The position numbers were made by a program, and so were the translations under genes. A stretch of 7,647 bases of DNA, from IMG/VR virus record IMGVR_UViG_2671180755_000005; one strand, given 5' to 3'. The notes beneath the pieces were generated by a model that did not search any database, had not been told where the DNA came from, and worked only from the letters and a program-made list of their open reading frames with translations. Origin of the DNA: a virus (taxonomy: Duplodnaviria > Heunggongvirae > Uroviricota > Caudoviricetes). Position 1 is the first letter of the stretch, and each line of letters opens with the position of its first letter. Below are positions 2,887 through 6,321 of the stretch, piece after piece.

Positions 2887-3340
2887 ACAGCAAATCCGTC
2901 TGGTGTGCCGTCAGTGCATGGACCGCTGCCGGGCGGGTGAAACGTGGCCCCCGGACCTGGCTGAGTTTGTTGCGCTGATTTCGGAGAGTGGGGCAAATCC
3001 ATTTGGTCTTACGGTGGATGCCGTGATGGAAGAGTACCGGCGCTGGCGCAATGAATCCTGGCGATACGACGGGAGTGATAAATACCCGTGGCCACAGCCT
3101 GTGCTGTACCACATCTGCCTCGAAATGCGTACCAGAGGGATTGAGCGCCAGATGACGCAAGGTGAGTTAAAACGACTTGCGGAACGGCAACTGACGAAAT
3201 GGGCAAAGCATGTTGGTAACGGGATGAGTGTTCCGCCAGTGCGACGACAACTGGAAGGGGCGAAACACCCGCAAGGGCCAACGCCAATTGAACGGCTGAA
3301 ACAGGAATACGAACGCCGGAAGGCAGCTGGTTTTATTTGA
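2678..3340 (+). CDS. Lambda P-like replication protein (helicase loader)
   Basis: 220-aa ORF. Recalled similarity to lambda P: ETWPPDLAEFVALI versus RPFLPSPGQFVAWC, KYPWPQPVLYHICLEMRTRGIERQMTQGELKRLAERQL versus SYPWKSNAHYWLVTNLYQNMRANALTDAELRRKAADEL. ATG at 2678 has the same CAAGGGGGG SD-like motif as the ydaT-like gene. Alternative in-frame starts at 2798 and 2879 have weaker SDs. Confidence 0.75.
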   Translation: MQHQVARHHGQFRKSGLHANSGNVTTDLSATETAWKLWVLMGEVYSNRWTQKNGAAPSKLWIAQIGAMTEQQIRLVCRQCMDRCRAGETWPPDLAEFVALISESGANPFGLTVDAVMEEYRRWRNESWRYDGSDKYPWPQPVLYHICLEMRTRGIERQMTQGELKRLAERQLTKWAKHVGNGMSVPPVRRQLEGAKHPQGPTPIERLKQEYERRKAAGFI

Positions 3341-5059: not shown

Positions 5060-5278
5060 ATGAAACATTATTTAGAAAAAAATTACCCACGAAAGAGCAG
5101 AACAACAGAGTTTCTGTTTTTCATTCTGTTTATAGTGTTGATGATACCGATATCCCCGCTATTACTGGTCTGGATAATTGGAAGGACATTTGAACCAGTT
5201 ATTGAGCTATATACCGATGTGACATGGGAATCATTCAGCGCACTGCACAATAAAATTAATCCGTATAAGGAAAACTGA
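5060..5278 (+). CDS. Small membrane protein (72 aa, one predicted TM helix), AT-rich accessory gene
   Basis: Complete ORF with hydrophobic segment FLFFILFIVLMIPISPLLLVWIIG. Its AT content is clearly higher than the flanking genes. Stop TGA at 5276-5278 sits next to the ATG of the following gene. Confidence 0.55.
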   Translation: MKHYLEKNYPRKSRTTEFLFFILFIVLMIPISPLLLVWIIGRTFEPVIELYTDVTWESFSALHNKINPYKEN

Positions 5279-5279
5279 T

Positions 5280-5837
5280 ATGAGCACTATTACCAGAGAA
5301 CGCGCGGAGATTAAATCATACATCACAGGCTTCCTGAGCGACTCGGCGCACGATAACAAGTCTTCAGACAGCCTGCTGGCTAATGTGTTTCGTATCGCGC
5401 TGGCATCACTGGAAGCAGAGCCGATAGCAATGGTAGTGCCTGATGAAATGGATTTGCTTACCTGCCATCTCGACGGTGTAACTAAAACATATGCTGATGG
5501 CTGGAACGCCTGCCGCGTCGCCATGCTTCAGGCCGGAAACTTTCGGGAAAATAAGAATTCGTCAACCAACAATTTTCGGGAAATCTCGGAAACGTCAACC
5601 AGATCTCCGATAACTCTGGATGGCTGGATAAGCTGTACTGAGCGAATGCCTGAAAAGAGCCAGAACGTGCTTATTTCGATGAATATCGATAGCGAGGCTG
5701 GGCCATTAATATATTCCGCACGCTATCTCGGAGGCACGTTCCGGCGCGGAGGTATAGCAGTTAGTCCGGGTAATGATCTTAGGCAAGCAACCCACTGGAT
5801 GTCGCTACCAGAACCGCCGCAGGAGGTGAATCAATGA
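5280..5837 (+). CDS. DUF551-like phage protein
   Basis: 185-aa ORF with AAGGAAAA upstream of ATG 5280. C-terminal DGWISCTERMPE ... THWMSLPEPPQ matches the DUF551 signature as I recall it. Confidence 0.75.
   Translation: MSTITRERAEIKSYITGFLSDSAHDNKSSDSLLANVFRIALASLEAEPIAMVVPDEMDLLTCHLDGVTKTYADGWNACRVAMLQAGNFRENKNSSTNNFREISETSTRSPITLDGWISCTERMPEKSQNVLISMNIDSEAGPLIYSARYLGGTFRRGGIAVSPGNDLRQATHWMSLPEPPQEVNQ
5538..5600 (+). repeat. Imperfect 31-bp tandem direct repeat inside the DUF551-like gene
   Basis: AACTTTCGGGAAAATAAGAATTCGTCAACCA (5538-5568) versus AATTTTCGGGAAATCTCGGAAACGTCAACCA (5570-5600), 23 of 31 identical, encoding NFRENKNSSTN / NFREISETSTR. Confidence 0.6.
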
Positions 5838-5917
5838 CCTGGCCTGAAGCATTCACAACGGTAGGAATTGCGATGGCGGTGGCGCTGGTGGTGTATTCGA
5901 TTTGCCGCTGGGGATAA
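5834..5917 (+). CDS. Candidate 27-aa hydrophobic small protein (MTWPEAFTTVGIAMAVALVVYSICRWG)
   Basis: ATG at 5834 with AGGAGGTG 7 nt upstream, forming an ATGA overlap with the DUF551-like stop. Single TM-like segment. Below the ORF-track size cutoff. Confidence 0.35.
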   Translation: MTWPEAFTTVGIAMAVALVVYSICRWG

Positions 5918-5924
5918 AAACGGT

Positions 5925-5952
5925 TTGCGGGAAAAGGATAGTTAAGTAGAAT
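5925..5952 (+). promoter_or_regulatory. Candidate promoter of the hok-like mRNA (-35 TTGCGG 5925-5930, -10 TAGAAT 5947-5952)
   Basis: -10 is a 5/6 match to TATAAT with a 16-bp spacer. The predicted start around 5958-5960 coincides with the 5' element GCGGGTGCTTGAGG. Confidence 0.4.
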
Positions 5953-6070
5953 TGCTGCGGGTGCTTGAGGCTATCTGCCTCGGGCATGAACACCAACGGC
6001 AGATAGAGAAAAGCCCCAGTTAACATTACGCGTCCTGCAAGACGCTTAACATTAATCTGAGGCTCAATCC

Positions 6071-6202
6071 ATGCTGAACACATGTAGGTTAGCCTCTTAC
6101 GTGCCGAAAGGAATGGTAACGAGGAAAGACCTCTGCGAGGTGCGAATCCGAACCGGTCAGACGGAGGTCGCTGTCTTCGTAGACTACGAATCTGAGAAGT
6201 AA
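6071..6202 (+). pseudogene. hok: hok/gef-family type I toxin reading frame with in-frame loss of the transmembrane segment
   Basis: 43-codon ORF MLNTCRLASYVPKG-M-VTRKDLCEVRIRTGQTEVAVFVDYESEK. The tail matches the Gef/HokC periplasmic tail (recalled as ...VTRKDLCEVHIRTGQTEVAVFTAYESE) and the MLNTC start matches the MokC-type leader frame, but the roughly 23-codon hydrophobic segment is missing. Conserved 5' (5957-5970) and 3' (6252-6266) complementary RNA elements flank it. Confidence 0.6.
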
Positions 6203-6321
6203 GAGACCAGGCGGGGGAGTAATCTCCCGCCACCTCTGATGTGTCAGGCATCCTCAACGCACCCGCGCTTTACCATACTGAAAATGCTGTTTGAATGTTC
6301 ATCTCTGAAAGAGGACTATGA

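Follow-up and report, generated by a model that had tools for sequence, protein, structure and literature searches.

Among the small inner-membrane proteins of Escherichia coli of 50 amino acids (aa) or fewer are KdpF (29 aa), MgtS (31 aa), YohP (27 aa), AcrZ (49 aa) and PmrR (29 aa), all listed in the Hemm/Storz catalogue. This study focused on a 27-codon open reading frame (ORF) in a 7,647-nucleotide (nt) stretch of DNA from a tailed virus (Caudoviricetes; IMG/VR record IMGVR_UViG_2671180755_000005), the whole of which is referred to here as the window. The ORF is very probably a real protein-coding gene, judging from its sequence and that of its relatives, and its product is predicted to be a micropeptide that spans the inner membrane once. 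It resembles the E. coli small membrane proteins in length, in having one helix with aromatic or charged caps, in its own Shine-Dalgarno (SD) sequence and in being missed by gene finders, and its likely mode of action, the binding of a larger membrane protein through transmembrane (TM) contacts, would be similar. It differs from them in that there is no sequence relationship and that the gene is phage-borne and mobile, occurs in up to 7 copies per genome, and is coupled through an ATGA overlap to a variable upstream gene.

Three other described systems come close. The Entero67K set of conserved intergenic small ORFs (smORFs; PMC11188072) from Enterobacteriaceae have 15-70 codons, encode mostly hydrophobic or TM products under purifying selection, and in about 13% of cases start within 10 nt of an upstream stop codon. 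The small ORF is the same class of object, but it overlaps its upstream gene by 4 nt and resides in prophages; its peptide was not found in the text or supplements of PMC11188072 that were searched. The Hok/Gef type I toxins are also small single-TM peptides, are encoded in the same prophages, and are often immediate neighbors. However, the small ORF has no HOK_GEF match (PF01848 gave zero matches at E<=10 for four peptide variants), no mok-like leader, and no sign of an antisense RNA or of a fold-back mRNA architecture, its SD is strong and exposed, and most of its distinct contexts have no hok. Finally, the exo-xis or ea genes of lambda and of the Shiga toxin (Stx) phages (ea22, ea8.5, orf60a, orf61, orf63) share its genome compartment and early expression class. 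The characterized exo-xis products are soluble, unlike the predicted peptide; no transmembrane ORF is mentioned in a survey that modelled exo-xis proteins, and the small ORF is unannotated in those phage records.

The small ORF, its ribosome-binding site and the gene to which it is coupled in the window are as follows.

5834-5917, plus strand: 27-codon small ORF, predicted single-pass membrane micropeptide (sequence read, ORF list, conservation)
5821-5828, plus strand: SD sequence AGGAGGTG of the small ORF, within the last codons of the DUF551 gene (sequence read)
5280-5837, plus strand: DUF551/Ea22-like mosaic gene, 185 aa, coupling partner in the window (Pfam PF04448, 72.5 bits, E=5e-20)

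The predicted product is MTWPEAFTTVGIAMAVALVVYSICRWG, read from an ATG at 5834-5836 to a TAA at 5915-5917. The ATG lies 7 nt from the GGAGG core of the SD and 5 nt from the full octamer, and it overlaps the TGA of the DUF551 gene (5835-5837) as ATGA. Upstream, the frame is closed by a TAG at 5780-5782, and there is no ATG, GTG or TTG between this and 5834, so that 5834 is the sole canonical start and a longer version is impossible in the window. Residues 6-24 form a 19-residue, TM-like core with a mean Kyte-Doolittle hydropathy of 2.1, and across all variant classes the same core averages 2.0-3.0 on this scale, which is not a dedicated TM predictor. Three of the features that define a small membrane protein are present: no more than 50 codons with a start and an SD, a single hydrophobic segment of membrane-spanning length, and a coding signature. 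The first-pass annotation, made from the sequence alone, had described a 27-codon ORF preceded by an SD at 7 nt, an ATGA junction with a DUF551-like gene, and a peptide forming a single TM-like helix. Sequence read and ORF list, the hydropathy values, and the Pfam match, which identifies the upstream gene as a genuine DUF551 gene (also annotated at the same coordinates in a near-identical locus as RefSeq WP_000104474.1), bear out each of these points.

The evidence for coding comes from how the ORF varies among related loci. A first sample of 80 loci, ranked by peptide identity, showed purely synonymous variation, but was left out of the selection test because choosing loci in this way introduces an ascertainment bias. 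A second sample was anchored on an exact match to the hok promoter that lies downstream, and was therefore blind to the small ORF. It comprised 118 loci, about 100 of which carry the small ORF. The 96 ungapped copies represent 34 haplotypes, and a minimum-spanning tree of these requires 40 synonymous, 33 non-synonymous and 3 stop events, with substitutions at codon positions 1, 2 and 3 numbering 16, 16 and 44. The synonymous fraction is 0.53, compared to an expectation of about 0.28 (binomial p=4e-6); the common polymorphisms are mostly synonymous, while the majority of the non-synonymous ones are rare. Both other plus-strand frames of the 84-nt unit contain stops.

Comparison of more distant copies gave a similar picture. 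Between the diverged classes (window, 933W, VT1-Sakai, PhiR12 and P1-like), which share 44-78% amino acid identity and differ by 13-30% in nucleotides, Nei-Gojobori dN/dS values were 0.18-0.61, and start, stop, length and hydrophobicity are all kept, as are W3-P4 and R25-W26 on either side of the hydrophobic core. In a neutral simulation with the observed number of differences, scored for retention of start, stop, open frame and an equally hydrophobic core, the chance of retention in the four diverged classes that are intact was 0.04, 0.005, 0.001 and 0.04, and it was 0.0001 for the copy in Shigella phage POCJ13 when its stop codon at W3 was scored as Trp. Further intact 27-residue variants, among them MSWPEAFAIVGVAISIALIIFSICRWG and MTWPDAFAIVGVAMSIALIVFAICRWG, follow a shared pattern: they begin with M-x-W-P-[ED]-A, have G11 and small residues at positions 13, 15 and 17, and carry [YF]-x-[IL]-[CF]-R-W-G at the C-terminus. 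Two checks proposed by the first-pass annotation, conservation of the ORF and its SD across related prophages and the pattern of synonymous and non-synonymous change, thus both favor coding: frame, length, start, stop and SD are kept, and changes are biased towards synonymous and conservative hydrophobic ones.

The 84-nt unit is widespread. It was found in 1,630 of 5,426 complete E. coli genomes (about 30%), at 3,102 places. An identical or related ORF is present in phages 933W, VT2-Sakai, VT1-Sakai, ArgO145, PhiR12, PhiR5 and others, as well as in POCJ13 (with the W3 stop), and P1-like phage-plasmids of Escherichia, Salmonella, Klebsiella and Shigella also carry it. A 181-nt query that ran from the small ORF in its SJ46 form into the beginning of the following gene matched 264 P1-like plasmids, some only partly. 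A scan of one genome per species, using strict patterns, returned only Escherichia, Shigella and short contigs, a result that does not establish absence elsewhere. The contigs, 369-1,780 nt in length, came from assemblies labelled Segatella copri (a metagenome-assembled genome), Acinetobacter idrijaensis and Xanthomonas pisi, and most likely reflect contamination or mis-binning. Searches by tblastn with the SJ46 and POCJ13-type peptides gave no matches, probably as a result of low-complexity masking. The small ORF also stands beside a gene for an 'EaA protein' in several large records (NC_025830.1, Av-05, 120.9 kb; ON075799.1, TH18, 133.9 kb; OK181858/OK181861), which in size are neither lambdoid nor P1-like and may be chimeric assemblies or cases of cassette acquisition.

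The unit behaves as a module. It is preceded by at least four kinds of upstream gene: Ea22-like mosaics ending in a DUF551 domain ('...HWMPLPEPPQEVNQ'), Ea22-like mosaics with an unrelated '...NGLISVEDILR' ending, an L0139-like zinc-ribbon/coiled-coil gene, and further kinds in the P1-like elements. The sequences 3' of it are likewise unrelated to one another, and include the hok promoter, GC-rich hairpins, a convergent ParDE pair and a convergent KilA-N gene, while the next gene begins 3-8 nt after the small ORF where the unit lies in a P1-like plasmid or in an exo-xis region immediately ahead of xis-int. BLAST homology often runs from query position 55, the ATG, to position 138/139, the stop codon; matches in P1-like plasmids also begin at the ATG. 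Across these settings the ORF has exactly 27 codons in 90 of 92 distinct contexts (one of the others has 24 and one 29), and an SD-like GGAG, GAGG or AGGA lies at -18 to -5 in 90 of the 92, including behind unrelated upstream genes. In 96 of 108 contexts there is an ATGA overlap between the start codon and an upstream ORF that is at least 40 aa long. The coupling to DUF551 that had been proposed is therefore present in the window but is not specific to that gene, the same overlap being formed with Ea22-like or other preceding genes. In terms of compartment, the unit is 3'-terminal, or nearly so, in co-directional early accessory operons, in the nin region here and in the exo-xis or b region elsewhere; in VT1-Sakai, PhiR12 and PhiR5 it directly follows Ea22-like genes, just 5' of xis-int.

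Alignment of 933W (1520-1945) with the window (5815-5840) revealed an additional gene in 933W, L0139, between the DUF551 gene and the small ORF. L0139 encodes a CxxC/coiled-coil protein, and its true start is probably the ATG at 1543 of the 933W locus. The motif AGGTGAA(C/T) occurs at both L0139 junctions, which shows cassette exchange at gene ends. The window looks like the 933W array without the L0139 cassette, or 933W looks like the window array with the cassette added.

Taken together, we regard it as likely that the small ORF is a coding gene of temperate phages, specifying a translationally coupled, early-expressed, one-helix inner-membrane micropeptide that would act by helix packing. 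It would be transcribed along with the upstream delayed-early accessory genes after induction or infection, and translated from its own GGAGG, with help from ribosomes that terminate on the preceding Ea22-like/DUF551 gene and reinitiate at the ATGA overlap. The 27-residue peptide is predicted to enter the inner membrane as one helix with residues 6-24 as its core, flanked by an interfacial W3-P4-E5 cap at one end and Y21...R25-W26 at the other, and the positive-inside rule (R25) suggests an N-out/C-in topology. The most conserved positions of the core are small residues spaced at i, i+4 (G11/A15 and A13/A17), from which we infer that the peptide packs against another TM helix. Its partner, during early lytic development, may be a second copy of the same helix or a membrane protein of the host or phage. 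Enzymatic or DNA-binding activity would not be expected of such a peptide.

Several observations weigh against this interpretation. The constraint is moderate rather than strong (omega of about 0.2-0.6). About 6 of the roughly 100 hok-linked copies are broken, either by a stop at W3 (TGG to TAG or TGA) or by a frameshift (1-nt deletion), and the POCJ13 copy (locus 1201-1284) also has the W3 stop, so the gene is dispensable; in our judgement, decay at this level is no surprise for an accessory gene that resident prophages can do without. The 24-residue SJ46 form lacks R25, which weakens the topology assignment. The minus-strand frame that shares its wobble positions with the small ORF shows a similar synonymous count and third-position bias, and was rejected only since it has no start inside the unit and would enter non-homologous flanks on both sides. 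Lastly, no ribosome-profiling or proteomic record of the peptide was found, and it is absent from the supplements of studies on small genes of enterohaemorrhagic E. coli (EHEC) and on the Enterobacteriaceae microproteome; the EHEC intergenic Ribo-seq survey applied a cut-off of at least 30 aa, so shorter ORFs were excluded.

Codon W3 has been struck by independent nonsense mutations in copies that are otherwise intact, in POCJ13 and in several IMG/VR loci, and 1-nt deletions are seen in codon 2 as well. The recurrence at W3 may be related to TGG being one step away from two stop codons.

A more specific form of the proposal is that the peptide is a widespread phage regulator of a particular host inner-membrane protein, made in the first minutes of the lytic cycle and binding through its G11/A15-A13/A17 face. 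This can be offered only tentatively, but if true, the peptide could affect the outcome of the lysis-lysogeny decision, superinfection exclusion or host physiology, and the accessory exo-xis/nin regions of Stx phages would contain a component that has gone unrecognized. About as doubtful is that it is a membrane toxin or host-kill peptide, expressed early in the lytic cycle and self-associating to depolarize or perturb the inner membrane instead of modulating one specific partner. In size, in having a single TM helix and in its face of small residues it is reminiscent of DinQ, TisB, Ibs and Hok-type peptides, its position in an early operon places it among host-shutoff genes, and the occasional nonsense alleles in prophages would fit a cost of leaky expression. 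On the other hand, the strong, exposed SD and the direct coupling are at odds with the tightly repressed translation of type I toxins; no minus-strand promoter-like site was seen over 5834-5917 (in a crude scan, so this counts for little), and no RNA family covers the ORF. The peptide matches neither Hok/Gef nor any other toxin family, and about 94% of hok-linked copies are intact, including those in defective prophages.

It is unlikely that the ORF is a non-coding by-product, i.e. that the 84 nt serve as a recombination boundary or linker between mosaic modules, or as a transcription or RNA element, and are open by chance. The unit does sit exactly at mosaic junctions, gene ends repeatedly carry short conserved junction sequences, for example AGGTGAATCAATGA, and its GC-richness leaves several frames free of stops. 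However, variation is concentrated at the third codon positions of the plus-strand frame, classes that differ by up to 30% in nucleotides have retained the signals, length and hydrophobicity of the ORF, and a linker has no need of a fixed length of 27 codons with an SD supplied by unrelated upstream genes. Nor was a structured RNA element detected over the small ORF, which folded no better than shuffled controls (z=-1.0), and an Rfam search of the window found no family there, the sole match starting at 5959. A longer minus-strand ORF (5853-6257, 134 aa, extending to 249 aa in 933W) runs antisense through hok/sok into the small ORF. The third positions of these long minus-strand ORFs fall on codon position 2 of the plus-strand frame, and the substitution pattern lends them no support, only 14 of 52 variants being synonymous in this frame; they were rejected as coding candidates, and that at 5853-6257 is probably a GC-rich antisense artefact.

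The immediate downstream neighbor of the small ORF in the window is a hok/sok locus, which has the following parts.

5925-5952, plus strand: putative hok promoter, -35 TTGCGG at 5925-5930, 16-nt spacer, -10 TAGAAT at 5947-5952 (homology to hokW/sokW of 933W and position relative to the Rfam match)
5959-6128, plus strand: hok mRNA leader/sok antisense region, an independent module (Rfam RF01794, 100.6 bits, E=1.5e-22)
6071-6202, plus strand: mok-hok remnant, a 43-aa ORF in the mok frame (comparison with 933W and O157:H7 146N4)

Physical proximity raises the question of whether the small ORF belongs to this system, as an upstream regulatory ORF or a modulator of Hok such as an immunity factor. 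It stands directly upstream, at a fixed distance of 7 nt, in about 100 of the 118 promoter-anchored loci, and hok follows it in 41 of the 92 distinct contexts. Yet more than half of those contexts have no hok, and instead show hairpins, convergent genes or a coupled next gene; around 18 hok loci have the same promoter without the small ORF; and in the window hok has lost its start and TM helix while the small ORF is intact. The -35 of the hok promoter begins 7 nt past the small-ORF stop codon, a gap that agrees with the first-pass statement that the ORF ends just before a candidate hok-like promoter. This means that the small ORF is outside the hok transcript, upstream of its start, and it is also outside the Rfam hok/sok element. 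Membership of hok/sok is, on these grounds, very unlikely. It is extremely unlikely that the ORF is a remnant of a larger protein, for which the 45-52-aa forms would be candidates, or a C-terminal tail reached by frameshifting, such as a TM anchor that recoding adds to the upstream protein: while the 45- and 52-aa versions predicted by PGAP begin inside the DUF551 gene and the frame is open for some way upstream in DUF551 contexts, the extension exists in only some of these, is closed in the window by the TAG, and is missing behind the '...VEDILR', L0139-like and P1-like genes, which still provide an SD and ATG, and the position of the stop is unchanged whatever follows.

With its 84 nt, the ORF falls under the 90-nt minimum gene length of Prodigal. 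In the RefSeq record of strain 146N4 there is no annotation between the DUF551 stop and hok, and the description of the ORF as unannotated holds for the RefSeq/PGAP and phage records inspected; it does not hold for some GenBank records, in which the identical or a variant peptide has been deposited. The identical 27-aa peptide occurs as AOM45384.1 and ASL59396.1, under names such as 'hypothetical protein FORC28_2400' and 'bacteriophage protein [E. coli O111:H11 CVM9545]', and a one-residue-class variant, MSWPEALTTVGIAMAVALVVYSICRWG, as 'putative prophage protein [E. coli 042]'. PGAP sometimes predicts extended forms of 45 or 52 aa (METVTLDAATRTAAGGESMSWPEA...), with a start in an alternative frame of the DUF551 3' end, and fragments of the small-ORF frame at contig edges (GGESMTWPEAFTTVGIAMAVALVVYSICRWG; GGESMTWPEAF...) have been labelled 'DUF551 domain-containing protein, partial'. 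Both the extended forms and these labels are frame or start mis-annotations arising from the overlap with the 3' end of DUF551.

No Pfam, NCBIfam or PHROG profile matched the peptide above threshold. The best matches below the cut-offs were phrog_4612 (E=0.009-0.02), DUF7512 (E=0.0065; 16.5 bits against a required 27) and DUF883_C (E=0.04), and the NCBIfam model for KdpF (TIGR02115), which aligned to just 12 residues, scored 14.7 bits where its cut-off is 26.85. Among phage holin and lysis profiles, only phrog_785 was returned (E=0.1), and only for the artefactually extended form. A role as a holin or lysis protein was rejected: there is no profile match above threshold, and the gene sits in early operons beside replication, ea and nin genes, not in a late lysis cassette. 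A search of 8 million texts did not find the peptide strings.

What appears to be a real, widespread and mostly unannotated micropeptide gene would join both the known class of small membrane proteins and the conserved enterobacterial smORFs. If the peptide is made, then RefSeq, Pfam, NCBIfam and PHROGs all lack a gene that about 30% of complete E. coli genomes carry. Its carriers include Stx1 and Stx2 phages as well as P1-like phage-plasmids. In Stx phages, the exo-xis, nin and b accessory regions have a known influence on the choice between lysis and lysogeny, and their gene lists have been treated as complete, so that deletion phenotypes assigned to 'ea22' or 'DUF551' segments could stem in part from the small ORF. 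The partial 'DUF551' fragments and the 45-aa extended form need correction in the databases. Small TM peptides are familiar biology, and the value of the gene lies in annotation and in dissecting the accessory regions of Stx phages.

The window itself corresponds to the portion of a lambdoid E. coli O157:H7 prophage that holds the immunity, replication and nin regions, and is essentially identical to the corresponding sequence of strain 146N4. The gene order is a cI-like repressor (minus strand), cro-like, YdaT-like, DnaT-like/O, P, DUF1627, small genes, DUF4014, DUF551, hok, a BOF/YgiW-like gene and DUF968. One neighbor was considered as a possible partner of the small ORF.

5060-5278: DUF4014 membrane protein gene, 72 aa (synteny comparison)

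Of 67 window-class loci, 46 have a DUF4014 gene upstream of the small ORF, at a distance of 400-1,400 nt. As an obligate partner it was rejected, the association being one of synteny only and the gene being missing from the 933W, VT1-Sakai, PhiR12, POCJ13 and P1-like contexts.

The hok region of the window shares 96-97% identity with mokW/hokW/sokW of phage 933W; a generic promoter scan of the window did not detect the putative hok promoter at 5925-5952. Compared with hokW of 933W, and with the O157:H7 146N4 locus, which is near-identical in other respects, hok has suffered a net in-frame deletion of 81 nt (junction near 6108-6114) that removes its SD, start codon and TM helix. The deletion junction had no single-piece match in the collection of complete E. 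coli genomes, where the best matches were in two pieces and 81 nt longer. What is left of hok still matches Pfam HOK_GEF at 51.6 bits, covering only profile positions 18-42.

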